DNA of 64,000 nucleotides, taken from assembly GCA_902783835.1 (NCBI GenBank), contig CACZSN010000019.1, positions 25,301-89,300 of the forward strand. The letters run 5' to 3'. Shown here piece after piece: positions 9,014 to 61,303 of this stretch. The DNA comes from an uncultured bacterium. GTDB taxonomy: Bacteria > Cyanobacteriota > Vampirovibrionia > Gastranaerophilales > Gastranaerophilaceae. The notes below the pieces were generated by a model. That model worked only from the letters and a program-made list of their open reading frames with translations, did no database searches and was not told the DNA's origin. The position numbers were made by a program, and so were the translations under genes. Numbering within the stretch: position 1 is the first letter of the stretch; each line of letters opens with the position of its first letter.

Positions 9014-9922
9014 GTGTTGAATGTCATGATTAAGAGTAAGATTAAAAAAATAACTGTTTTCGTTATATTTTACGCGTTTTTATACATTTTAATGGAATTT
9101 TTATCGTTAACGGTTTTATATTTCAGTTCGCCCGACGGATTAAAAAATGATATCAAAATGTACGGAAGTTCTTTGTTATTTGATGTTCGTGATTTTAAAG
9201 ATGAAAAATATCTTTCTTTTATTCATAAACCTGTAATTGTGCCAAATTCTAAAAAAGCACCAATTGGAATTTTTGGTTGTTCGTTCGGATATGGTGGAGA
9301 AAATAATATTTTCGGACGTGATTTATCAAAATTGACGAACAGAAGTGTGTATAATTATTCCGTTCAGGGTGTCGGACCGCAAATGATGTATTATGCTATT
9401 GACAAAGGAAAGGTCAATGACAGTATTGATACGTATATTTATGTGTTTTTCGGGGACCATAATCTTAGATGTTGCAAGTTCAGATGTAATCCTTTTGTGA
9501 ATTATGTTGTTCCGAGATATAATTTAAAACAAAATGATACTTTGAAAATTCAATATCCGAATACTTTTCAGCGAACATCTTTTATTTACAGAGCATATGA
9601 GCAAATTTTTCCGCTTTATTACCAAAACGGAAATTATGCTGATAAGGTATTTTATAATGTTGTTATGCAGTCTTTTGAGCGGTTGAAAGAAAAAAATAAC
9701 AGTATAAAATTTATTATTTTGATTTATTCTGATATATCTAAGGAAGATTTTTGTTGCGGTGAAAGATTTGAGGAAGCCGGTATTGATTTGGTTTTCGTCA
9801 ATGATTTGACCGGAGAGAATATGATGACGTTAAAATATCAAATTTCTCCTGACGATTCTCATCCTAATCTTGCGGCATGGGATTTGATTTCTAAAAAATT
9901 GGTTCAAAAGTATAATTTTTAA
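9014..9922 (+). CDS. Membrane-anchored SGNH/GDSL-like hydrolase or acyltransferase (tentative)
   Basis: 302 aa with an N-terminal TM. IGIFGCSFGYG resembles SGNH block I (GDS replaced by GCS). C-terminal DDSHPNLAAWDLIS resembles block V (DxxH). GTG at 9014 gives the longest ORF; ATG at 9026 is an alternative start. Confidence 0.4.
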   Translation: MLNVMIKSKIKKITVFVIFYAFLYILMEFLSLTVLYFSSPDGLKNDIKMYGSSLLFDVRDFKDEKYLSFIHKPVIVPNSKKAPIGIFGCSFGYGGENNIFGRDLSKLTNRSVYNYSVQGVGPQMMYYAIDKGKVNDSIDTYIYVFFGDHNLRCCKFRCNPFVNYVVPRYNLKQNDTLKIQYPNTFQRTSFIYRAYEQIFPLYYQNGNYADKVFYNVVMQSFERLKEKNNSIKFIILIYSDISKEDFCCGERFEEAGIDLVFVNDLTGENMMTLKYQISPDDSHPNLAAWDLISKKLVQKYNF

Positions 9923-10014: not shown

Positions 10015-11163
10015 ATGAGCAGGGAAAAATTTATAATACTGATTCTTTTATATATTGCATTTATTGCCCTTGGACTGCCTGACCAAATTTTGGGTGTGGC
10101 ATGGCCGACAATGAGAGTTGATTTTGGCAAAAATCTTGATGCTGCTGGAATTATAACATTTTCCTGCACAATTTTTTCATCGTTGGCAGGTTTTTTAAAC
10201 GGTTATATTGCTCGAAAATTTCCCGTTTCTAAAATCGTTGCGGTCAGTATATTTCTCACTGCTGTCGGAAGTTTAGGGTATGCATTGTCCCCGAATTGGC
10301 TGACTTTTCTTATGTTTGTTATACCATCGGGACTCGGAGCCGGAAGTGTCGACAGCACATTAAACAACTATGTCGCTCTCAATTATTCTTCACGGCATAT
10401 GAGTTGGTTGCACGGTTTTTGGGGAATTGGTTCAACTCTCGGGCCGTTAATTATGACATTTGCGTTTGTCAAAAACCTTACGTGGCGTGGCGGATATGCC
10501 ATTGTCGGTATAATTTTATTTTTAATGTCTGTGATTTTTATGTTTAAGCAATTTGGTTTTTCCCAAAATCAGGAAACCGAGATTGTTAAAGAAGACGTAA
10601 AACCTGTGAATATGTTTACTTTAAATACTTTTTTAAGTGCAACGTTTTTCTTCTTTTATACAGCAACTGAAGGTGGTGTCGGACTCTGGATATATTCGGT
10701 TATGACGGAACAAAGAGGCTTTGACCCCGTATTTGCGGGAACTTTGGCTGCTATATATTGGGGTGCTTTAACTTTCGGAAGATTTTTGGTCGGTTTCGTT
10801 ACCAAAAAGTTTTGCAACAGTGCCATAATTCTTGCAAGTATATTAATTTCATTGATTTCAATGTTATTACTTTGTATTCCGATACATATTACGACGGTAA
10901 TCGGTTTAGTTGCACTTGGCATGGGGCTTTCCGGAATTTATCCCTGTACAATGAATGAGACACATAAGCGTTATGAAATTGAAAAGGCAAAAATCCTTAT
11001 GGGGCATCAAGTCGGTTCGGCTTGTTTAGGTTTTGCAATTATGACACCGCTTTTAGGGATAATCATTCAAAGAATAGGATTGAATTATTTGCCGGTTATA
11101 ACAACAATTTTCGTCTTAATTCTTCTTTCGATTGAGTTAAGACTGAGAAAATTGAGTGTTTAA
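10015..11163 (+). CDS. MFS transporter
   Basis: 382 aa with about 12 hydrophobic segments. N-terminal LGLPDQILGVAWPTM and a central loop are typical of major-facilitator permeases. Confidence 0.8.
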   Translation: MSREKFIILILLYIAFIALGLPDQILGVAWPTMRVDFGKNLDAAGIITFSCTIFSSLAGFLNGYIARKFPVSKIVAVSIFLTAVGSLGYALSPNWLTFLMFVIPSGLGAGSVDSTLNNYVALNYSSRHMSWLHGFWGIGSTLGPLIMTFAFVKNLTWRGGYAIVGIILFLMSVIFMFKQFGFSQNQETEIVKEDVKPVNMFTLNTFLSATFFFFYTATEGGVGLWIYSVMTEQRGFDPVFAGTLAAIYWGALTFGRFLVGFVTKKFCNSAIILASILISLISMLLLCIPIHITTVIGLVALGMGLSGIYPCTMNETHKRYEIEKAKILMGHQVGSACLGFAIMTPLLGIIIQRIGLNYLPVITTIFVLILLSIELRLRKLSV

Positions 11164-11175
11164 TTTTGTTTTAAA

Positions 11176-12273
11176 TTAAAGAGAACCTTTTTGTTTAATG
11201 ATGAGGTTTTTGAAATTTTCTTTTGAGCAATTGTAGATGTAATCCACGTATTGGCTCAAATATTGACGTTTTTGGTTATATTCATCATTAGACATGTTAA
11301 TGCATTTTACGAGTGCATTGTAAAAATCGTCGTTGTTTTCGTAAATTACGGAATTGCCGTCATCAAAACCGTTTATGGGAGCAAAACTTCTTATGATAAC
11401 GCAAGGTTTCAAAAATCCGTAAACTAATTGGAAGCAGCCGCTTGTGCTTGATGTAATATAGCCGAGGTGTTCTTCTTTTGTATCGTCATATGCGGTAAGC
11501 ATAAAATCGGATTTTTCGATTTCATTATACATATCCGTAAATGAAAGACGTCCTTTTATATCGATATATTTTTTGAGTTCATTTGGGACGCAATCCAAGT
11601 CTCCTTTTCCGATTACGGTAATTTTAAAATTTTTATATCCGTTTTTAATCAATTCCAATGCGGAGTTTACAATCAAGTGAGTATCTTTTTTGGAAGCGGA
11701 AAATTTTCCGACAACAACAAAATTTGTAATTTCATTTTTTTGATTTTGTTCAAATTTTCCGAAGTAGTGCGGGTTTACGACTACTGATTGAGCATTTTTG
11801 TAATTGAGTTTTCTTAATGTAATAAGATTTTCATTCCAAGTACCGTTGTCGGTAGCAGGTTTTGCTTCGTGTTCAACGAAGAACAATTTATTTTTATCAG
11901 CTTTTGCAAAAAAGTTGTATGCTTGGTCGAAATTAACGCTGTCGCAAATTTTTCCGACTGTTGTGACCAAAACACCTGCGACATCTTCAAGTGTATTATT
12001 TTTGAAATATTTTTCGATTTGTTTTTTTGTCATAACGTTGTAAGAGATATTTTCTTCGCCAAATCTGCAGAAAAGACCTTCTTTTAATCTGTCCGGTTCT
12101 ACCAAAACGGAAACGTGATATCCCAAGTCCAAAAGATATTTTGCATATCCCGGAACAACTTCGGCATGGCTTTTTGAGCATGGTTCCCAAACGAAGAAAG
12201 TATTTTCTTTTATAATCGGTTTTTTATCTTGAAAAATATTTTTAAAAAAATCTGCAATATTACTCATTATCAA
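11176..12273 (-). CDS. Putative GT-B-fold glycosyltransferase (tentative)
   Basis: 365 aa. The C-terminal half (VVVGKFSASKKD...ITVIGKGDL...IKGRLSFTDMYNEIEKSDFMLTAY...) resembles the GT1/GT4 Rossmann half, but the usual EX7E is not evident. Last gene of the Stealth/PIG-L cluster. Confidence 0.4.
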   Translation of the reverse strand: MIMSNIADFFKNIFQDKKPIIKENTFFVWEPCSKSHAEVVPGYAKYLLDLGYHVSVLVEPDRLKEGLFCRFGEENISYNVMTKKQIEKYFKNNTLEDVAGVLVTTVGKICDSVNFDQAYNFFAKADKNKLFFVEHEAKPATDNGTWNENLITLRKLNYKNAQSVVVNPHYFGKFEQNQKNEITNFVVVGKFSASKKDTHLIVNSALELIKNGYKNFKITVIGKGDLDCVPNELKKYIDIKGRLSFTDMYNEIEKSDFMLTAYDDTKEEHLGYITSSTSGCFQLVYGFLKPCVIIRSFAPINGFDDGNSVIYENNDDFYNALVKCINMSNDEYNQKRQYLSQYVDYIYNCSKENFKNLIIKQKGSL

Positions 12274-40344: not shown

Positions 40345-41004
40345 TCACTTACCTACTGCTACACTCACCATTGAGGCTCTCAAGACTTTGTCTCCGAATT
40401 TGTATCCTTTTTGCATTTCTTGCATAACTGTTTCTTCGGGGTGTTCGTCCGTCGGAACTTGCATTACGGCTTCGTGGAGATTCGGGTCAAATTTTTCGCC
40501 CTCTGTTTTAATTTGTTCCAAGCCTAATTTTGTGAGTGCATCTCTAAACTGTTTGTTCAAAATGTTGAAGGATTCTTTTGCTTTTTCGCAATCGTCAATT
40601 TTTTCCATTGCTTTTTCCGCACGGTCGAAATTGTCCGCAAGTTCAATCATTTTCTTCAAGGCTTGTTCTGTGCCAAACTTGATGAGATTTTCCCGTTCAG
40701 ATTCTTGTCTTTTTCTGTAATTATCAAAATCAGCAGCAAGTCTCAAATATTGGTTATTGAGCGTCTCATACGCTTCTTTTGTCTTTTTTAATTCTTCTTC
40801 TGATTTGTTTCCGAAAAGTCCGCCCAAAATGCCTTTCTTTTCTTGTGTTTCTTCTGTTTTTTCTTCGTTAGCAGTTTCTTCTGCTGTTTCTTTTTCTTCT
40901 GTTTCTACCGCATCATCAACACTTACGGTGTTTTCCGTTTCTTCTGTTGCAAACGGATTAGATGATTTTTTTTGTTCTTCATGATTTTTATGATGTTTTG
41001 ACAT
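40345..41004 (-). CDS. grpE: Nucleotide exchange factor GrpE
   Basis: 219 aa. Acidic N-terminus, [12 protein letters not shown], and C-terminal [14 protein letters not shown]. Confidence 0.9.
40918..40932. repeat. AACAC-N5-GTGTT palindrome copy inside grpE
   Basis: The + strand reads AACAC-TTACG-GTGTT. In the grpE frame (minus strand) it reads AAC ACC GTA AGT GTT = N25-T-V-S-V29. Confidence 0.8.
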
Positions 41005-41128: not shown

Positions 41129-42148
41129 ATGGCTAAAATCAGACGGTTTAACATTTCACATTTTAAAAAAGTTCAAAAGATGGTTTCATCGATTTCGCCC
41201 GATGAAAAAATTTCTTATAGTGGTACGATTTTAGGTGGATTGTTGGATATTTTTCAAGATTTTATGCCGCTTGCTCTTCGAAAATCTCCTGAATCTTACA
41301 TTGTTATTAATGAAAATAATGATGTTAAGGCATTCATCACGATTGAGGTTACGAAAGGGAATAAGCACAAATGGTTTGTTAAGCAGTTATTTCTTGATAA
41401 AAATTCTTTTGATGAAGGAAAACAGTTGATTGGCTATGTTGTGGCGAAATATGGGGCATTGGGGGCTGATACGTTTTGCGTTTTGATTGACGAAAATGAC
41501 GAGACGTCGGCGGAACTTTTCTCGAAACGGTGCGGTTTCAGACTTTGTTCTCGGGAAGTAGTTTGGCATGCTTCGGATATTGATTTGAATTCGACGTATA
41601 AATGGGCTGATTTTTGCAAGTTGAGTAATTTTGAGGCGAAAAAGGTTGCAGATTTTTATAATGATGCAATTTTGCCCCATTTCAGATTTTCATTAGAACA
41701 GGATATTGATGAATTTAAGTCTCCGATTTTGAAAAATCCATTCAAAAAATATTCTCAAAAATTTGTCCTCAAAAACAATGATAAAAGTATTCTTGCCTAT
41801 CTTGAGTACCATTTTGTTAACCCGACGGATTTTTTGATTGATTTGGTAGTGACAAAACCTTTTGAAAACGAGTATTTGCCGATTTTGAAAGCGGTAATTT
41901 CTCATTTGAAGGAAATTGTCCCGAATGGAAACATTTTTGTGCTAAACAGAAATTATATGACAAGTGCAAAATCCTTTGAGGACGTGCTTTATGGTTGTGG
42001 ATTTGAAAAAACACAAATTAAAATGCTCCTCGTAAAAGATTTTTATAAACCTTTGAAAACAGAAGAACCGATTGTAAATCCGGCAGTTATTTTTAATGAA
42101 ATTACCCCTGCTTTTATGCTCGGTAACAGATTGCAAAAATCTGATTAA
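41129..42148 (+). CDS. Hypothetical protein with two GNAT-like halves (tentative)
   Basis: 339 aa. The segments GKQLIGYVVAKYGALGADTFCVLIDENDETSAELFSKRCGFR and LPILKAVISHLKEIVPNGNIFVLNRNYMTSAKSFEDVLYGCGFE resemble GNAT beta4-alpha3 and C-terminal regions. Confidence 0.4.
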   Translation: MAKIRRFNISHFKKVQKMVSSISPDEKISYSGTILGGLLDIFQDFMPLALRKSPESYIVINENNDVKAFITIEVTKGNKHKWFVKQLFLDKNSFDEGKQLIGYVVAKYGALGADTFCVLIDENDETSAELFSKRCGFRLCSREVVWHASDIDLNSTYKWADFCKLSNFEAKKVADFYNDAILPHFRFSLEQDIDEFKSPILKNPFKKYSQKFVLKNNDKSILAYLEYHFVNPTDFLIDLVVTKPFENEYLPILKAVISHLKEIVPNGNIFVLNRNYMTSAKSFEDVLYGCGFEKTQIKMLLVKDFYKPLKTEEPIVNPAVIFNEITPAFMLGNRLQKSD

Positions 42149-42164
42149 ATACTATAATTTTCTT

Positions 42165-43298
42165 ATGATTGATATTAAAAAAGCAAAAAGAATAGTTTTT
42201 AAGTTCGGGACGAACGTCTTAAGAGGCGATGACGGCTCGATTTCGCTCTCTCGTATTTACTCGTTTATTGAAGATATTTCAAAACTTCATAAACAAGGAA
42301 AAGAAATTATTATCGTAACTTCAGGTGCTGTAGGACTTGGGGCGAATAAAGTTAATGTTGATACAACCGGCGATGTTATTTTGAAACAGGCTTGTGCTGC
42401 AATCGGGCAAACGACTTTGATGTCGATTTATGAACACGGTTTCGACAAGTATAAAATCACCTGTGCTCAAATCCTTTTGACGGAAGAAGATTTTACTCAA
42501 CGTGTTAAATATTTGAGTCTTAGCAACGTTTTGAACAGACTTTTGGAACTCAAAATTATTCCGATTATCAACCAAAATGACACGGTTTCGACGACTGAAC
42601 TTGAAGAAGCTCGTGGCGTTCTTGAAGTTTGTTTTTCGGATAATGATAAGTTGTCAGCCCTTGTGGCAAGTAAACTTGAGGCGGATTTGCTTGTTATAAT
42701 GTCTGATATTGACGGACTTTTTGACGACAATCCGAAGGAAAATCCGAACGCAAAAAGAATTCCTCTTGTTGAAGAAGTCACTCCCGAAATCGAAAGTATG
42801 GGGCAAGAAGCGTCAAAAGGCGGTCGCGGCGGTATGAAAACAAAACTTGAAGCCGCTAAGGTTGTCACTCGTTCGGGCGGTCACGTTATTATCGCAAACG
42901 GCAAAACCCCGAACATTGTTACAAAAATCTTCAAAGAGGACGACATTGGAACGATTTTCTTGCCGACAGAAAAATTGTCAGGTAAAAAACGCTGGGTTGG
43001 CTATGCTACAAGCATTTCTGGCAAAGTTAAAGTTAATGCCGGTGCGAAAAAAGCACTTATTGAAAAGGATGCAAGCCTTTTATCTATCGGTGTTTTGGAC
43101 ATTGAAGGTGAATTCCAAAAGGGTGATGTTGTTACTATTCTTGATGAAAACGGTAATGAATTTGCAAAAGGAATGGTAAATTACGGAAGTTTTGATTGCC
43201 GAAAAATTATTGGTGTTCACTCTGATGAAATCGCTAAAATTTTGGGCCATAAAAATTATGACGCAATTATTACCCGTGATAATATTGTAATTTTATAG
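42165..43298 (+). CDS. proB: Glutamate 5-kinase with C-terminal PUA domain
   Basis: Start at the ATG at 42165 (MIDIKKAKRIVFKFGTN...). IIVTSGAVGLG and NDTVST motifs. PUA-like tail VKVNAGAKKAL...GDVV. Confidence 0.9.
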   Translation: MIDIKKAKRIVFKFGTNVLRGDDGSISLSRIYSFIEDISKLHKQGKEIIIVTSGAVGLGANKVNVDTTGDVILKQACAAIGQTTLMSIYEHGFDKYKITCAQILLTEEDFTQRVKYLSLSNVLNRLLELKIIPIINQNDTVSTTELEEARGVLEVCFSDNDKLSALVASKLEADLLVIMSDIDGLFDDNPKENPNAKRIPLVEEVTPEIESMGQEASKGGRGGMKTKLEAAKVVTRSGGHVIIANGKTPNIVTKIFKEDDIGTIFLPTEKLSGKKRWVGYATSISGKVKVNAGAKKALIEKDASLLSIGVLDIEGEFQKGDVVTILDENGNEFAKGMVNYGSFDCRKIIGVHSDEIAKILGHKNYDAIITRDNIVIL

Positions 43299-43306
43299 GA
43301 AATTTT

Positions 43307-44599
43307 ATGTCAGATATAAAAACAGTTGCAAAAAATGCAAAAAATGCTTCAATCATACTCTCATCATTGTCCTGCGAAATCAAAAATGCGGCTCTGAAAA
43401 ATATTGCCGATGCTTTGAAAAAAAACACTAATAGTGTTATTGAGGCAAACGAAAAGGATTTGACGGCTGCTAAAGTTGCTGTCGATGAAGGAAAATTGTC
43501 AAAATCAGTTTTTAATCGTTTGAAGGCTGATGAAAATAAGATAAATTCAATGATTGACGGGATTTATGACGTTATGAAACTTGACGACCCTGTCAACAAA
43601 GTTGAGTTCACAAGAGAACTTGCTGACGGTTTGATTTTGAAAAAAGTTACCTGTCCGATTGGAGTTATCGGTGTTATTTTTGAAGCAAGACCTGATGTTT
43701 TGGCTCAAATTTCAGCACTTGCAATAAAATCAGGTAATGCGGTGCTTTTAAAAGGCGGAAAAGAAACAGTTAACACAAATAGTGTTATTTATAAAATTAT
43801 TGTTGATGCTCTCGATAAAACGGAAGGTTTCCCGAAAAACGTTATCAATTTGTTGTTTTCTCACGAAGATGTTGCTCAAATGCTTTCGGAAGATAAATCA
43901 ATAGATTTGATTATTCCGAGAGGCTCAAACAAACTTGTTAAATACATTCAAGAAAATACAAAAATTCCTGTTTTGGGTCATGCAAGCGGAATTTGTCATA
44001 TTTACGCAGATGAGACTGCTGATTTTGATAAAGCGTTGACGGTTATTGAAGATTCAAAATGCCAGTATCCTGCGGCTTGTAACTCTGTTGAGACAGTTTT
44101 GGTGAACAAAAATATCGCCGAAAAATTCTTGCCGTTATTTGTGTCAAAGATGACCGAAGTCGGTGTTATTGTTAACGGTGACGAGGAAGCAAGAAATATC
44201 GTTGACGGTCTTGGTGAAGTTCAAGAGTGGGCACACGAGTATGGAGAAAAAGAATTGTCCGTGAAAATTGTTTCTTCTGTGGAAGAAGCAGTTGACCACA
44301 TCAATGAATTTGGATCAGGTCATACCGATTGTATTGTAAGCGAAAACACTAATAGTGTTAATTATTTTATGGCTCGTGTTGACTCGGCAGGTGTTTATCA
44401 CAATGCTTCGACGAGATTTGCTGACGGTTACAGATACGGTTTCGGTGCAGAGGTCGGAATTTCAACAAACAAAACTCACGCAAGAGGCCCTGTCGGACTT
44501 GAAGGTTTGACAATTTACAAGTATCAACTTGAAGGTCATGGCGATATCGTTTCTGATTTTTGCTCAGGAAAAAGAAAATTCACGCATAAAAACATTTAA
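43307..44599 (+). CDS. proA: Glutamate-5-semialdehyde dehydrogenase
   Basis: 430 aa. PIGVIGVIFEARPDV, GNAVLLKGGKE, IPRGS, CNSVETVLV, HNASTRFADGYRYGFGAEVGIST. Confidence 0.9.
   Translation: MSDIKTVAKNAKNASIILSSLSCEIKNAALKNIADALKKNTNSVIEANEKDLTAAKVAVDEGKLSKSVFNRLKADENKINSMIDGIYDVMKLDDPVNKVEFTRELADGLILKKVTCPIGVIGVIFEARPDVLAQISALAIKSGNAVLLKGGKETVNTNSVIYKIIVDALDKTEGFPKNVINLLFSHEDVAQMLSEDKSIDLIIPRGSNKLVKYIQENTKIPVLGHASGICHIYADETADFDKALTVIEDSKCQYPAACNSVETVLVNKNIAEKFLPLFVSKMTEVGVIVNGDEEARNIVDGLGEVQEWAHEYGEKELSVKIVSSVEEAVDHINEFGSGHTDCIVSENTNSVNYFMARVDSAGVYHNASTRFADGYRYGFGAEVGISTNKTHARGPVGLEGLTIYKYQLEGHGDIVSDFCSGKRKFTHKNI
43424..43438. repeat. Palindrome AACAC-TAATA-GTGTT, intragenic copy 1 (proA codons 40-44, NTNSV)
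   Basis: Read directly from the sequence. In frame with proA ((43424-43307) is divisible by 3). Confidence 0.9.
43771..43787. repeat. Palindrome TAACAC-AAATA-GTGTTA, intragenic copy 2 (proA NTNSV)
   Basis: Read directly from the sequence. The AAC at 43772 is in frame with proA. Confidence 0.9.
44345..44359. repeat. Palindrome AACAC-TAATA-GTGTT, intragenic copy 3 (proA NTNSV)
   Basis: Read directly from the sequence. The AAC at 44345 is in frame with proA. The 15-mer is identical to copy 1. Confidence 0.9.
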
Positions 44600-44619
44600 C
44601 ACAAATAGTGTTAAATGTT
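44591..44619 (+). terminator. Extended copy of the same palindrome spanning the proA stop codon (terminator-like hairpin)
   Basis: 12-bp stem AACATTTAACAC/GTGTTAAATGTT with loop AAATA, followed by TTT. The stem is AT-rich and the T-run is short. Confidence 0.45.
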
Positions 44620-44642
44620 TTGAAAGTATTTATTAATGCCTG

Positions 44643-44661
44643 ATAACACGAATAGTGTTAT
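44643..44661. repeat. Palindrome ATAACAC-GAATA-GTGTTAT spanning the queA stop codon
   Basis: 7-bp stem. No T-run on the queA (minus) side, so it is not a clear intrinsic terminator. Confidence 0.8.
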
Positions 44662-45695
44662 TTGATAAACATGCAATCTCCGTAGCTATAAAATCTGTAT
44701 TGGTTTTCGATTGCGTGTTTGTAAGCATCAAAGATGAATTCACGACCTGCAAATGCTGAAACGAGCATCAAGAGTGTTGATTTCGGCAAGTGGAAATTCG
44801 TTATAATTTTGTTGACGATTTTGAACTCAAAACCGGGGTAGATAAATAATTCAGAATGGTCTTTTACGGGAATAATTTTGCCGTATTTTTGCATTGTTGT
44901 TTCGAGGGTACGAACGCTTGTTGTGCCGACCGCAACGATGTTTTTGCCTTGAGCAATCGCCTCATTGATAGCGTTTGCACTATCTTCTGGGATTTCGAAG
45001 GTTTCTGAATCCATTTTATGATTTTCGATGTCGTCAACTTTTACGGGTTTAAACGTTCCTAAACCCACATTGAGGTGAACAAATGCTTTTCCTACACCTT
45101 TTTGTTCTAATTTATCGAGGATTTCTTTTGTAAAATGAAGTCCTGCCGTCGGTGCAGCAACGGAGCCTTCGTATTTTGCATAAACGGTTTGATAGCGTTC
45201 AAAGTCAAGGTTTTTATACTGCTCGTCGGTCATATTTCTTTCGATATATGGCGGAAGCGGAATATTTCCGTACTCGCCCAAAATTTCGTAGATATTTCCT
45301 GTGTAATTCAGTTTGATTTTCCATTTGTCGTCAATTTTTTCCAAGATTTCGACTGAAAGTTTTTCACCTACCGTTAACACCATTTGTGGTTTTACGCGTT
45401 TTGAGGGCTTTATGAGGGCTATCCAAATCGATTTTTCGATTTCTCTCACAAGGAAAATTTCAATTTTTGCACCTGTATCCTTTATTGAAAACAATCTTGC
45501 CGGAATGACTTTTGTATTATTCAAAACGAGAAAATCATTTTCATCGAGGCAGTCTACAATATCGTAAAAGTGTTTGTCTTCATAACAAAGAGCCTGTCTG
45601 TTTAAGACAAGCATCTTTGAATTTTCTCTTTTTTGAGAAGGTAATTGTGCAATTAATTCTTTTGGAAGTTCATAATCAAATTCATCAAGTTTCAT
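44658..45695 (-). CDS. queA: S-adenosylmethionine:tRNA ribosyltransferase-isomerase
   Basis: 345 aa. MKLDEFDYELPKELIAQ, VAAPTAGLHFT, and C-terminal RFYSYGDCMFI. Confidence 0.9.
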   Translation of the reverse strand: MKLDEFDYELPKELIAQLPSQKRENSKMLVLNRQALCYEDKHFYDIVDCLDENDFLVLNNTKVIPARLFSIKDTGAKIEIFLVREIEKSIWIALIKPSKRVKPQMVLTVGEKLSVEILEKIDDKWKIKLNYTGNIYEILGEYGNIPLPPYIERNMTDEQYKNLDFERYQTVYAKYEGSVAAPTAGLHFTKEILDKLEQKGVGKAFVHLNVGLGTFKPVKVDDIENHKMDSETFEIPEDSANAINEAIAQGKNIVAVGTTSVRTLETTMQKYGKIIPVKDHSELFIYPGFEFKIVNKIITNFHLPKSTLLMLVSAFAGREFIFDAYKHAIENQYRFYSYGDCMFIK

Positions 45696-45696
45696 A

Positions 45697-46761
45697 TTAC
45701 TTTTCCGGTTTTACGTCAATTACTTCTGATTTTTCTTCTGCCGCATCAAGTTGTTTATTGATGATGAAAGTTTGTCCGATTTGGAACAGGTTACTTACTA
45801 CCAAATAAAGCAAAACACCTGCGGGGATGGGGACGAAGAAGAAAGTTGCCGTTAAGAATATCGGCATTGTTCTTCCCATTGTTTTTTGCATAGCTTCCTG
45901 TTGAGGGTCAAGTTGCTGCTTTGAATTTTTGTTTGTAAGCGTCATAACTTTTGTTGCAAAGAACATTGATAAGCCGAAGAAAAGAACCAATGCAAGAACG
46001 TCTAAGTTCATTTTTTCGTTTGCTTGAATTGTTTTAATATCTGCTGTTAAGATATCTCCGCTTCTTTTAAACTCAACGTTTTCGGATTCTCTTGCGTTAA
46101 CATTTGTAATTTCAACTTCTGCACCCGTGATGGTTTTATTTTCAAAAGTATCAACTTGGAAAGCATTGAGAGCAAGTTTAAATTCGACATTTTCTCCGGG
46201 GATAATTTGATTCATATAACGAAGATTGTCTTTTGAAGCTTTAACTTTTACGTCTTTTTCTACGGAGCCGTCACTAAAGTATACCGTTGCTTTTTTGCCT
46301 AAGTTGAAATTTGCTGTTTTTCCGACGGTAAAGGTGTTGTCGAAAGAACGTGCCGAAGTTCCTCTGATAGTTGCATCGAGTCTGTTGATAAATAAGAATT
46401 TCGCATTTCCTGCAAGGTCAATGAATTGCGGACTGATTAATGCTGTATACAACAAAATGAAAATAGGCATTTGAATTAAAACAGGGAAGCAACCGCCCAT
46501 AGGGTTGAAATTGTTTTCCTTGTAAAATTCCATCATTTTGCGTTGCATAACTTGCGGATCGTCTTTATAACGTTCCTGAATCATTTTCATTTTAGGCTGC
46601 ATTTTTTGCATAACCTTCATAGAACGTTGTTGTGATACGCTTAACGGCCACATCAAAACTCTTACTATAATTGTCAAAAATATAATTCCCAATCCGTAAC
46701 TGCCGCAAATATTGCTTAATGCTTTAAGCAGTTGGATTGTTGCATCTGTAAAAAATTCCAC
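45697..46761 (-). CDS. yidC: Membrane protein insertase YidC
   Basis: 354 aa. NPMGGCFPVLIQMPIFILLY core motif, multiple TMs, and a central soluble insert. Confidence 0.85.
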   Translation of the reverse strand: MEFFTDATIQLLKALSNICGSYGLGIIFLTIIVRVLMWPLSVSQQRSMKVMQKMQPKMKMIQERYKDDPQVMQRKMMEFYKENNFNPMGGCFPVLIQMPIFILLYTALISPQFIDLAGNAKFLFINRLDATIRGTSARSFDNTFTVGKTANFNLGKKATVYFSDGSVEKDVKVKASKDNLRYMNQIIPGENVEFKLALNAFQVDTFENKTITGAEVEITNVNARESENVEFKRSGDILTADIKTIQANEKMNLDVLALVLFFGLSMFFATKVMTLTNKNSKQQLDPQQEAMQKTMGRTMPIFLTATFFFVPIPAGVLLYLVVSNLFQIGQTFIINKQLDAAEEKSEVIDVKPEK

Positions 46762-57431: not shown

Positions 57432-58068
57432 TGTTGTGATTGCACCGTCAATTTTATCAGCTGATTTTGCAAATTTAGAACGTGATATCAAAAAAATTAA
57501 AGACGGTGGTGCGGAATGGGCACACGTTGATGTTATGGACGGTCATTTTGTCCCGAATATTACAATCGGTGCACCTGTTGTTAAGGCGATAAGAAAAGTT
57601 ACGGATATGTTTTTGGATGTTCATTTAATGATTGAAAATCCCGAAAAATACGTTCCTGATTTTGCTAAGGCGGGTTCTGATTTAATAACCTTCCACTATG
57701 AAGCCACAAGGGAAAACACGGATAGTGTTATTGATTTGATAAAGTCTTTCGGAATTAAAGTCGGACTTTCAATCAAGCCGAAAACGAAACCTGAAGAAAT
57801 CAAAGAGTATCTTGACAAAGTTGATATGATTTTGGTTATGACGGTAGAACCGGGATTTGGCGGTCAATCGTTTATGTCTGATTGTGCTGAAAAAATCAAA
57901 TATATTCGTGAAAATTCCACAAACAAGGATTTGCGAGTCGAAGTTGATGGCGGAATAAACGCTGAAACTGGCAAAATTTGTAAGGATTATGGTGCAGATA
58001 CGCTCGTTGCGGGCAGTTATGTGTACGGAAATTCGGATATAACAGCAGCAATTCAATCATTGAGGTAG
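57424..58068 (+). CDS. rpe: Ribulose-phosphate 3-epimerase
   Basis: 214 aa. IAPSILSADF, HVDVMDGHFVPN, MTVEPGFGGQ, VDGGI. Confidence 0.9.
   Translation: MNNVVIAPSILSADFANLERDIKKIKDGGAEWAHVDVMDGHFVPNITIGAPVVKAIRKVTDMFLDVHLMIENPEKYVPDFAKAGSDLITFHYEATRENTDSVIDLIKSFGIKVGLSIKPKTKPEEIKEYLDKVDMILVMTVEPGFGGQSFMSDCAEKIKYIRENSTNKDLRVEVDGGINAETGKICKDYGADTLVAGSYVYGNSDITAAIQSLR
57715..57729. repeat. AACAC-N5-GTGTT palindrome copy inside rpe
   Basis: AACAC-GGATA-GTGTT, in frame with rpe as AAC ACG GAT AGT GTT = N-T-D-S-V. Confidence 0.8.
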
Positions 58069-59737: not shown

Positions 59738-61303
59738 ATGCAAAATTTGTTTAAAAAATTAATTAAATCATTGATTTTTGGAGCGGTTTTTTTAATCCCC
59801 GTCATTCTAATTTATTATACAAATAGTGTTTTGCCTATGAGCGGTCACGAATTTAGAATTCCTTTCGGAAGAGAGTTTCTTAATCCCGAACACGGAAGAT
59901 ATATTGCAACCGCTTTTGGAAATACGTTTTTTGAACAATTGCCGAGAATTTTGAACATTCATGTTCTTGATTTTAGATCTTCCGGAATTTTGTTTTCGGT
60001 TATTATTTTAAGTATAAGCATTTTTTCGATTATTGGATACGGATTTTTGTTATTTTTCGAAAAAACGGATAATCATAAACATTGGCTTTGGTTGCTTTGT
60101 TATATTGTGACTTTTTTGATTTTTTTCAATCACAATTTCAGATATCTATATCATGCCGATTTGGTTATATTTTTTGAATATACATCAAGTCTGATTCCGT
60201 ATTTGACTTCGTTGTCAATTGTATTTTGGATTTTTTCAAAACAAAAAATTCCGTCAAATCTTATTTTTGGTCTGTTTTTATGCTCATCGTTTTTTACGGG
60301 AATTTCGATTGAAGCCTTGAATATTCCTTATTTTCTTTTCTTGTGTGCGATAACACTATTTGTGGCAATTGATTACCGAAAAGATATTAACAACGAAACG
60401 AAGAAACAAATCCTGAAAATATTTATATTTGCACTAATCATTAATACAATATCTTGTGCTTTTTATTATTTGAAACCTGTTGATCACGATATGAATGACA
60501 AAGACTTTTTGTTATCCGCGTGGAAAAGTTTCTTCCCTGTGATTTTTGACAAGTTTATAAACAAATATATTATTTTCCATTTAATTTCCTTAATAGGATT
60601 GGGTGCGATTGCTTTTCGCCGAAAAAATTTTCAAAACCAAAATGTCAGATTTTTTGCGGTCATTGTTTTTAATACCGTTTCTTTGCTTACATTTTGTTTT
60701 TTAGGCAATTATTATATTTTTTGCATGTACGATATAGGTTGTCTGTTAGGGGAAGAAAAATATTTTTTGACTTATGTTGCCACATTATTTTTCCAAAATT
60801 TCGTTATTTGGGGATATTATTTTGCAACATCTTCCGATAAAAAATCCGTCAAAATCCTTTATGCGGAAATTGGTGTGATTTTGCTCATTTTGGCTGCAAA
60901 TTATCAATATTTTCAAGGGTATTTGACCGAAATGACGAGGTGGAGAAATGAAGCTTCTCATTGGAGAAAACGACAATATTGTGTTGAAAAATTAATGGTT
61001 GCTCAGGCAGGAAAAGAAACAATTACTTTTCCTAATATCTATTGGGATTATGACAGTTTGGGCGATAAAGCCTTTTTATTCTGTTTAATGATTGTTCATT
61101 ATCCTGATTTTAAAAATTTGAAAACAATTGTCGTTGATAACAGTCTTCCTTTTGATGATTTTATGGAAAAAGAAGCTGATGATTATAAATTTTCCAATCT
61201 TTTGCAACACAAAATTGAGCAATACGAAGGTGATTATTCACTCGTTTTTGAAGAAATTAAAGAAGAAAATGATAAAGTCATTTTTGAATTACAACATTAT
61301 TAA
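59738..61303 (+). CDS. Polytopic membrane protein, paralogue 1 (possible GT-C-like glycosyltransferase)
   Basis: 521 aa with about 11-12 TMs. First-loop motif SGHEFRIPFGREFLNPEHGRY. About 110-aa soluble C-terminal domain. Confidence 0.55.
   Translation: MQNLFKKLIKSLIFGAVFLIPVILIYYTNSVLPMSGHEFRIPFGREFLNPEHGRYIATAFGNTFFEQLPRILNIHVLDFRSSGILFSVIILSISIFSIIGYGFLLFFEKTDNHKHWLWLLCYIVTFLIFFNHNFRYLYHADLVIFFEYTSSLIPYLTSLSIVFWIFSKQKIPSNLIFGLFLCSSFFTGISIEALNIPYFLFLCAITLFVAIDYRKDINNETKKQILKIFIFALIINTISCAFYYLKPVDHDMNDKDFLLSAWKSFFPVIFDKFINKYIIFHLISLIGLGAIAFRRKNFQNQNVRFFAVIVFNTVSLLTFCFLGNYYIFCMYDIGCLLGEEKYFLTYVATLFFQNFVIWGYYFATSSDKKSVKILYAEIGVILLILAANYQYFQGYLTEMTRWRNEASHWRKRQYCVEKLMVAQAGKETITFPNIYWDYDSLGDKAFLFCLMIVHYPDFKNLKTIVVDNSLPFDDFMEKEADDYKFSNLLQHKIEQYEGDYSLVFEEIKEENDKVIFELQHY

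Follow-up and report, generated by a model that had tools for sequence, protein, structure and literature searches.

A 64,000-nucleotide stretch of DNA from an uncultured gut bacterium of the Gastranaerophilaceae (GenBank assembly GCA_902783835.1, contig CACZSN010000019.1, positions 25301-89300, which we refer to as the window) carries five copies of the palindrome AACAC-N5-GTGTT within 1.24 kb (43424-44661), in and just beyond the glutamate-5-semialdehyde dehydrogenase gene proA and at the end of its convergent neighbour queA. The palindrome is a dispersed, lineage-specific motif of gut Gastranaerophilales that is kept at the level of the DNA, and the proA-queA region is one local cluster of it. 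As the motif sits in many unrelated genes and gene ends, it is not a proline-specific control element. A first-pass annotation of the window had listed these five copies, all of which are present in the sequence, and had counted seven matched arm pairs in the window against a rough expectation of about 0.1; we also counted seven, the two beyond the cluster lying in grpE and rpe (Table 1), against a mean of 0.06 in 100 dinucleotide shuffles, none of which (0/100) gave seven. The clustering of hairpin palindromes at proA is real and far above chance. The ProA sequence of the window occurs on both pig and human gut metagenome contigs, and its named homologues are from Candidatus Gastranaerophilales (Melainabacteria/Vampirovibrionia), a lineage that lacks photosynthesis and is sister to the Cyanobacteria.

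Three of the five copies (sites 1–3, Table 1) lie within proA in a single codon phase, as had been noted, so that ProA contains the peptide NTNSV three times. The remaining two overlap stop codons: the stem of site 4 encloses the proA stop codon (TAA, 44597-44599), and site 5 supplies that of queA (44658-44660, minus strand). The site 4 stem had been described as 12 bp long, in fact it is 14 bp (44589-44621), and its overlap with the stop codon had been placed correctly. The sequence shared by sites 1 and 3, AACACTAATAGTGTT, is a perfect 7-1-7 duplex palindrome, and because positions 7 and 9 are complementary in all five window copies the apparent loop belongs to the symmetry. On the plus strand the centre reads nAATA in all five.

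We compared the window's ProA with 120 ProA homologues and with yeast and plant ProA, and its DNA with proA loci fetched from 13 relatives. All homologues at least 85% identical to the window's protein have NTNSV at all three sites, at 75–82% identity the peptide is patchy (NTDSV, NTNSI, NTICI and NLNSV were seen), and below 70% identity N(I/K)xxI and ENxxNAE stand in place of NTNSV at sites 1 and 3 whilst site 2 still reads xTNSVIF. At the position of site 3, distant homologues have ENxxNAE and closer ones ENTDSV or ENTNSV. No indels occur at sites 1–3 relative to the yeast or plant protein or to the 120 homologues, and of the three sites only the N-T of site 2 is conserved in yeast and plant. 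The first-pass annotation had placed all three copies in same-length, poorly conserved segments; the lengths are indeed unchanged and sites 1 and 3 are variable, but the N-T(-N) of site 2 is conserved widely across ProA, and the site 2 peptide is therefore largely ancestral. Since the homologue pattern differs by site in this way, sites 1 and 3 have converged on a site-2-like peptide within one clade. A protein-level cause of NTNSV was rejected for sites 1 and 3, and is partly true for site 2, where the peptide is the ancestral one.

At the nucleotide level, every proA site within the clade is spelled AAC ACN AAT AGT GTT (relatives with 82–95% ProA identity), and the third position of the Thr codon, which is free in the palindrome, varies among these relatives. 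The N, N, S and V codons of sites 1–3 match those of the window in 12/12 cases in L141, L132 and L143 (locus handles of relatives are given in this form throughout), against a background synonymous identity of 0.58–0.67 in the same loci, giving P of about 0.002–0.008 for each relative. The outgroup L151, on the other hand, matches the window at only 3/9 motif codons and spells the NTNSV of site 2 as AAT ACA AAC AGT GTA. From the codon usage of the window alone, NTNSV would be spelled as the palindrome with P = 0.02 per site. All of sites 1–5 are kept across relatives with 80–95% ProA identity, their synonymous positions fixed and the linkers between them diverged; site 5, for example, is retained despite a diverged intervening linker. 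With the codons of the motif invariant and synonymous positions elsewhere free to change, the constraint upon them acts on the DNA. This agrees with the first-pass annotation, which had argued for selection or spread at the nucleotide level and had proposed an alignment of ProA orthologues, in which the NTNSV codons prove to be fixed within the clade and mostly different in the outgroup.

The relatives also differ in the number and form of their sites. In several, the site 1 palindrome is lengthened to the 21-mer AATAACACTAATAGTGTTATT. In L141/L142 (ProA 90% identical) a fourth copy with one mismatch, absent from the window, lies in proA at 10825 (codon ~275), which suggests continuing gain or loss of sites within the gene, and L133 has no perfect copy left whilst retaining proBA. 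Site 1 reads AACACTATTTGTATC in L134/L145/L146 (NTICI, ProA residues 40–44), and the ProA homologues P0051 and P0061 share NTICI; this form of site 1, found in the P0051 lineage, would fit an inversion of the centre followed by decay through two substitutions. Position 6 of the motif looks homogenised locally, being T at all sites in L141 and A at all sites in L132. Directly downstream of proA, several relatives have a YjbR-family gene, which in L143/L144 lies between proA and queA. Where a YjbR gene or otherwise unrelated sequence follows proA (L143/L144, L132/L133, L150), sites 4 and 5 are absent, and in relatives without these two sites the intragenic proA copies persist (L132, L143) or decay (L133). 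Upstream, the conserved 339-aa open-reading frame (ORF) ends 16 bp before proB and has only a sub-threshold match, to a GNAT acetyltransferase; it precedes proB in every fetched relative down to 74% ProA identity, though not in L152 (67%), and perhaps belongs to the proBA operon as a gene not yet characterised.

Table 1 Genes of the proA region and copies or relatives of the palindrome in the window (window coordinates).
Feature	Coordinates	Strand	Remarks
grpE	40345-41004	-	
Arms-only match	40918-40932		In grpE; AACACTTACGGTGTT, centre TTACG; conserved in L001 and L131
Conserved 339-aa ORF	41129-42148	+	
proB	about 42165-43298	+	With PUA domain
proA	43307-44599	+	Glutamate-5-semialdehyde dehydrogenase, 430 aa; NCBIfam NF001221, E = 5e-153; hosts sites 1–3
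Site 1	43424-43438	+	AACACTAATAGTGTT; in proA; NTNSV, residues 40–44
Site 2	core 43772-43786; 17-mer 43771-43787	+	Core AACACAAATAGTGTT; 17-mer TAACAC-AAATA-GTGTTA; in proA; NTNSV, residues 156–160
Site 3	44345-44359	+	AACACTAATAGTGTT; in proA; NTNSV, residues 347–351
Site 4	core 44598-44612; stem 44589-44621	.	Core AACACAAATAGTGTT; 14-bp stem AAAACATTTAACAC-AAATA-GTGTTAAATGTTTT
Site 5	core 44645-44659; extended 44643-44661	.	Core AACACGAATAGTGTT; extended ATAACAC-GAATA-GTGTTAT; overlaps queA stop codon
queA	44658-45695	-	Convergent neighbour of proA; NCBIfam NF001140, E = 1e-138
yidC	45697-46761	-	
One-mismatch copy	57715-57729	+	In rpe; AACACGGATAGTGTT, centre GGATA; NTDSV, phase 0 like the proA copies
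Weak two-mismatch relative	59816-59830	+	In ORF 59738-61303; TATACAAATAGTGTT; YTNSV, phase 0
Second weak two-mismatch relative	60352-60366	other strand	In ORF 59738-61303; TLFVA, phase 2

To follow the motif beyond proA, public metagenome contigs were scanned with the 19-mer ATAACACNAATAGTGTTAT, the loci found being thus ascertained through the motif itself. The scan returned 114 stretches, few of them from the proA locus, which fall into 56 locus groups by sequence, and 16 of these groups carry two to six copies of AACAC-N5-GTGTT; the proA locus is one of the 16, so there are at least 15 multi-copy loci besides it. Lineage was checked for two groups and both are tied to the Gastranaerophilales lineage: in L171, NnrD shares 98% identity with P0129 and is linked to the lineage of the ProA homologue P0016 (90% identical to the window's), and the homologues of a GT39 protein in L187 are named Candidatus Gastranaerophilaceae. 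In viral contigs the 19-mer gave five single matches, equal to background.

Taking the metagenome loci and the window together, 57 of 116 copies lie inside ORFs and 59 are intergenic. Among the coding copies, 31 are in phase 0 and encode NTNSV (22), NTDSV (4), NTISV (2, which is the palindrome with its centre base flipped) or other peptides, 26 are in phase 2 and encode ITLFVL, LTLIVL or VTLLVL, mostly in membrane proteins, and none is in phase 1, a frame of which one orientation contains TAA/TAG. Genes flank 49 of the intergenic copies on both sides, in convergent (27), tandem (16) or divergent (6) arrangement, and 10 of the 16 tandem copies sit closer to the 3′ end of the upstream gene. Many intergenic copies are at a stop codon or within 150 nt of one, and at least nine different genes, proA and queA included, terminate exactly in the TAA of TAACAC. 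The genes at or beside motif clusters include FolD, Fmt, a GH57 branching enzyme, NnrD, a GltD-like oxidoreductase, TonB-like proteins, a Na+/H+ antiporter, an ABC-2 permease, TPR proteins and GT39 glycosyltransferases. That such unrelated housekeeping genes adjoin the clusters argues against a regulon. Two of these proteins repeat the pattern seen in ProA: within their clade only, and with no indels, NnrD has acquired NTNSV/NTISV and a GT39 membrane protein has acquired ITLFVL twice and LTLIVL once. In both, the motif peptides fill variable segments of unchanged length, are fixed in the clade and are missing from distant homologues.

Several clusters are arrays of three to four co-oriented copies between convergent genes (L230 4505-4655; L258 3139-3245; L172 9675-9836; L220 3858-3953), the linkers of which are not conserved, yet hold isolated AACAC or GTGTT half-sites. 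Not every copy is at a 3′ end, since some lie exactly 90 bp upstream of a predicted ATG (L162 2470 and 3416; L156 5440 / L245 2283). The genes that follow these copies are tandem paralogues, SGNH-like homologues of ORF 9014-9922 of the window, which represents a 300-aa membrane-anchored family with no Pfam match whose members adjoin motif copies at 25–30% identity (in L162, L167, L172, L196, L206, L218, L227, L253 and L258). Its members, many of them beside GT39-like and 460–510-aa membrane ORFs, seem to form an envelope family of multiple paralogues and not to be mobile-element genes. No recurrent regulator was found adjoining the motif clusters; the neighbours that do recur are paralogous envelope genes (the SGNH-like family and GT39), and their recurrence reflects repeated sampling of the same loci in different strains.

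With this wider set of copies, the anatomy of the motif could be defined as a core of AACAC-(T/a)AWTA-GTGTT, often extended to 21 bp by complementary flanks (AAT...ATT), with a consensus of about AATAACAC-TAWTA-GTGTTATT. Statistics for the centre were taken from 61 copies that lay outside the ascertainment of the search pattern: positions 7–10 are A-A/T-T-A in 52–60 of the 61, preceded by T or A at position 6, and 26 copies have A as the centre base and 34 have T. Usage of position 6 in the two half-sites fits exchangeable halves (chi-square p = 0.10). The uniform loop orientation reported earlier therefore stands for the window but not for the family (in L147/L148 the centre is TATTT): with half-site statistics that fit symmetry and A and T about equally frequent at the centre, the family is symmetric and the co-oriented nAATA is only a local property. 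An asymmetric loop was rejected as a family feature on these grounds.

The arms are strictly kept. Motif-bearing loci amounting to 389 kb hold 98 exact copies; a further 24 copies differ by one arm mismatch, where 0.25 would be expected, and compensatory double changes number zero. The contrast between 24 single mismatches and no compensatory change implies that the arm sequence itself matters and not merely its pairing, and generic hairpin selection on the core was rejected for lack of compensatory changes. Neighbouring copies in arrays are spaced 35–36, 45–49, 54–56 or 66 bp apart, and sites 4 and 5, 47 bp apart, fall within the common 45–49 bp class. At a period of 10.5 bp the spacing gives a Rayleigh R of 0.53 (p about 4e-4, uncorrected for the periods scanned). 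The motif thereby shows three traits generic to palindromes bound by dimers: two-fold symmetry including the centre, sequence-specific half-sites and helical phasing, the last suggestive only. We also considered an association between GC skew and motif orientation (raw odds ratio 4.6, p = 5e-4); it was lost once orthologous loci were counted once, and was rejected as pseudo-replication because only ~5–6 independent loci were consistent with it, against 3 inconsistent.

Site 4 is, in addition, a predicted bidirectional intrinsic terminator that covaries. It folds with -15.2 kcal/mol on the plus strand and -15.1 kcal/mol on the minus strand (z = -5.2 and about -5), lies between the convergent proA and queA, and has a stem preceded by an A-tract and followed by a T-tract. 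Across a set of eight relatives, compensatory changes are seen at two of the outer stem pairs and changes to G-U at two others, whilst the inner AACAC/GTGTT core is essentially fixed. The hairpins at sites 1–3 are weak (-4 to -5 kcal/mol, z = -0.9 to -2.0), those of sites 1 and 3 being not significantly better than shuffled sequence, and the other terminators in the window are built on unrelated stems. In L147/L148 (ProA 95% identical; 11292-11306) the centre of site 4 is exactly reverse-complemented, with TATTT for AAATA, a change that would be best explained by one hairpin-mediated inversion rather than by three point mutations. An Rfam scan of 40–47 kb of the window gave only sub-threshold chance matches, and no T-box or other leader.

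A symmetry that includes the centre, strict and non-covarying arms, clustering, a spacing of ~10 bp, and indifference to gene function, strand and gene boundaries together point to a site for a protein dimer. Our preferred reading, which we hold tentatively and regard as quite possible, is that the copies are recognition sites for a putative symmetric dimeric DNA-binding protein, with a role that would be genome-wide and not gene-specific; it is from the features of the motif that we infer the existence and nature of this protein, and its biological role. The motif would arise by base substitution where little is at stake, in permissive places such as the variable parts of proteins, membrane-spanning helices, the TAA stop codon and the first bases beyond it, and purifying selection on the DNA sequence would then retain it. 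A homodimeric, sequence-specific protein would recognise the duplex site and occupy clusters or arrays, with nucleoid organisation or the insulation of gene ends as example roles. As each copy is self-complementary, intergenic copies could be co-opted as the tips of terminator hairpins, as at site 4. A stronger form of the same idea, a genome-wide system made up of a ~21-bp palindrome, a dimeric protein and helically phased arrays within genes and on stop codons, we think somewhat unlikely. If true, the arrays would be roadblocks or insulators of convergent transcription, or centromere-like or nucleoid-organising sites, and selection on the sites would be strong enough to rewrite proteins convergently (NTNSV, ITLFVL) in many unrelated genes.

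Several points weigh against recognition by a dimeric protein. The only sample not ascertained through the motif is 83 kb of this genome, the window plus a 19.4-kb extension of the same scaffold, and outside the proA cluster it holds no perfect copy and one copy with a single mismatch (in rpe), or about 1–2 copies per 80 kb. The protein is itself only putative. Intergenic copies favour 3′ ends, which a terminator or hairpin function predicts equally, classical transcription factors seldom have their sites within genes or at 3′ ends, and site 4 behaves as an RNA terminator in both its fold and its covariation. The spacing periodicity is based on ~20 partly non-independent distances, with a period chosen after scanning several values. 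Lastly, the centre base is uniform within arrays (about 15/17 neighbouring pairs, including the five window copies), and a purely symmetric dimer, which would not sense polarity, leaves this uniformity unexplained.

The low count outside the cluster also sets the scale of the motif in the genome. More than 13 kb without copies follow the proA cluster, the 19.4-kb extension has no further copies, and relatives, in the flanks retrieved around ProA, likewise have the motif in proA-queA alone. The arms-only match in grpE may be chance, because the family otherwise conserves the AATA centre. The weaker family members in rpe and in ORF 59738-61303 may be decaying or nascent copies, more doubtfully so for the two in the ORF. 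Together with the metagenome loci, this shows a motif that is dispersed but not hyper-abundant, and rough extrapolation would put it at tens of copies per genome, concentrated in clusters.

Among the alternatives, a hairpin working in RNA or single-stranded DNA would be a terminator or 3′-end-stabilising stem-loop, perhaps bound by a hairpin-specific protein, with the intragenic copies modulating elongation or mRNA decay. It fits the strong, A/T-tract-flanked site 4 with its compensatory and G-U changes in the outer stem, the 55% of intergenic copies that lie between convergent genes and the many near stop codons, the many copies in which AAA...TTT or locus-specific complementary flanks extend the stem, and the loop inversion at site 4 of L147, by which the DNA would form or use the hairpin. 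We nevertheless consider it unlikely, as the core arms show no compensatory substitution (0 against 24 single mismatches), the supposed loop is palindromic and conserved, the proA hairpins are weak, with sites 1 and 3 no better than shuffled, and the other terminators of the window have unrelated stems. Orientation relative to the mRNA is also balanced among intragenic copies (31 in phase 0, 26 in phase 2), and because both orientations are used equally, no single loop sequence is presented in RNA. Molecular drive with no function per site, through a competence uptake signal, biased repair or gene conversion, would instead make the copies a by-product of how DNA is taken up or repaired, and we rate it lower again. 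Copies that arise by indel-free substitution, in preferred frames, at poorly conserved residues and in part within terminators are the pattern described for uptake sequences (PMC2817400), the motif is common to several species of the clade, and its centre bases are homogenised locally (position 6 as T in L141 and A in L132). However, ~1–2 copies per 80 kb outside the cluster is orders of magnitude below the ~1 per kb of uptake signals or of the highly iterated palindrome (HIP1) of Cyanobacteria, the copies are strongly clustered and not even (five in 1.24 kb, then none for >13 kb), a palindrome of 15–21 bp is unlike the asymmetric uptake signals of 9–12 bp, phased arrays are not predicted, and we found no literature on competence in this lineage.

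The first-pass annotation had also suggested hairpin targets of an HUH/RAYT-type enzyme, and a palindrome resembling repetitive extragenic palindromic (REP) sequences or bacterial interspersed mosaic elements (BIME), spread by a REP-associated tyrosine transposase (RAYT, HUH Y1) or similar hairpin-specific enzyme encoded elsewhere in the genome, would account for intergenic arrays at 3′ ends and between convergent genes, and for stems conserved in sequence with no covariation, as copying from a master element would leave them. Coding sequence holds about half of all copies, though, and those of proA, nnrD and GT39 lie in same-length segments with graded intermediates (NTDSV, NTNSI), which shows an origin by substitution and excludes insertion. 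The linkers within arrays lack conservation, no Y1 transposase was found in 18 flanking or motif-bearing proteins, no transposase family recurs in 288 clustered ORFs, and the 19-mer is at background in viral contigs; such spread is improbable. Least credible of all is an array specific to proBA, whether as operators for a proline-responsive repressor or as hairpins for premature termination or processing that might be bound by the PUA domain of ProB, both of which the annotation had raised in outline. The concentration of five copies on proA and its 3′ end, the conservation of the cluster at this locus in relatives with 80–95% ProA identity, and the PUA domain itself speak for it, but neither proB nor the ORF before it has a copy upstream, the motif shows no tie to proline genes and forms the same clusters in and after unrelated ones (FolD, NnrD, GT39, TonB-like and others), L133 keeps proBA with no perfect copy, and the region has no Rfam element.

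The remaining suggestion of the first-pass annotation, a lineage-specific iterated palindrome, comes closest to what we found, given at least 15 other multi-copy loci, except that in abundance the motif falls far short of HIP1 or uptake signals. HIP1 (GCGATCGC) has cognate orphan methyltransferases, and a neutral origin through biased repair or gene conversion was once suggested for it. Our literature search found no description of palindromic repeats in Melainabacteria or Gastranaerophilales, and the motif may be regarded as a lineage-specific, over-represented palindrome for which no published description was found and whose closest analogue in kind is HIP1. HIP1 occurs within and between ORFs, is conserved at orthologous positions and has been proposed to have a role in nucleoid or chromosome structure (PMC5861425, PMC4390886). 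The two palindromes are alike in being lineage-specific and over-represented relative to composition, in occurring inside and between ORFs, in conserved orthologous positions that imply selection on DNA, and in having no evident role at the level of the gene, and their host lineages are sister groups. They differ in sequence (HIP1 has 0 occurrences in the 64-kb window), in length (15–21 bp against 8 bp) and in abundance (clusters plus ~1–2 per 80 kb, against up to >1 HIP1 per gene), and the present motif is strongly clustered with a short-range spacing of ~10n+5 bp.

Other known systems share parts of this pattern. Uptake sequences originate by substitution, use preferred frames at poorly conserved residues and have intergenic copies that serve as terminator hairpins (PMC2817400). 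In all these respects the uptake signal sequences of Pasteurellaceae (USS) and the DNA uptake sequences of Neisseria (DUS) resemble our motif, as they do in making particular peptides more frequent (here NTNSV and ITLFVL), but they are asymmetric 9–12-mers that occur in hundreds to thousands of copies, ~1 per kb and fairly evenly spaced, whereas our motif is symmetric, rare genome-wide and clustered. The REP, BIME and REPIN (REP doublets forming hairpins) elements are likewise palindromic units, of 20–40 nt, and are arrayed at the 3′ ends of operons and where convergent genes meet. REP and BIME elements can act on mRNA 3′ ends and bind gyrase and integration host factor. They are, however, extragenic and spread as inserted units, whereas about half of our copies are in frame within genes and without indels; array copies here are co-oriented and not alternating, and no RAYT was found among the 18 proteins scanned or the 288 clustered ORFs. 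An intrinsic bidirectional terminator describes site 4 and similar extended copies elsewhere, but termination does not explain the weak in-frame sites 1–3 or the fixed core.

The recognition sites parS (bound by ParB), NBS (Noc), SBS (SlmA), matS (MatP) and ram (RacA) are dimer-bound palindromes of 12–16 bp, present in tens per genome, often in coding sequence and sometimes clustered; they serve a chromosome-wide function and are maintained as DNA sequence. Our motif resembles them as a palindrome that ignores gene boundaries and is putatively bound by a dimer, but its sequence matches none of them, and we know of no description of arrays spaced at 35–66 bp at gene ends, or of exact overlap with stop codons, for any of these sites. 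Canonical parS (TGTTNCACGTGAAACA) was tried and rejected, the window having only two matches with two mismatches (0.32 expected), neither of them near the proA cluster.

The motif represents a DNA-level signal that prevails over the choice of codons, and at times over the amino acids themselves, in the housekeeping enzymes of an uncultured lineage from human and animal guts, whose sister group, the Cyanobacteria, has an iterated palindrome of its own in HIP1. Being long, mappably rare, clustered and symmetric, it offers a tractable model for how genome-wide sequence signals arise and are maintained, and for finding the factor that reads them. For annotators, a peptide that recurs, as NTNSV and ITLFVL do, can be the by-product of a motif in the nucleotides, and in metagenomes the motif marks this clade of Gastranaerophilales.

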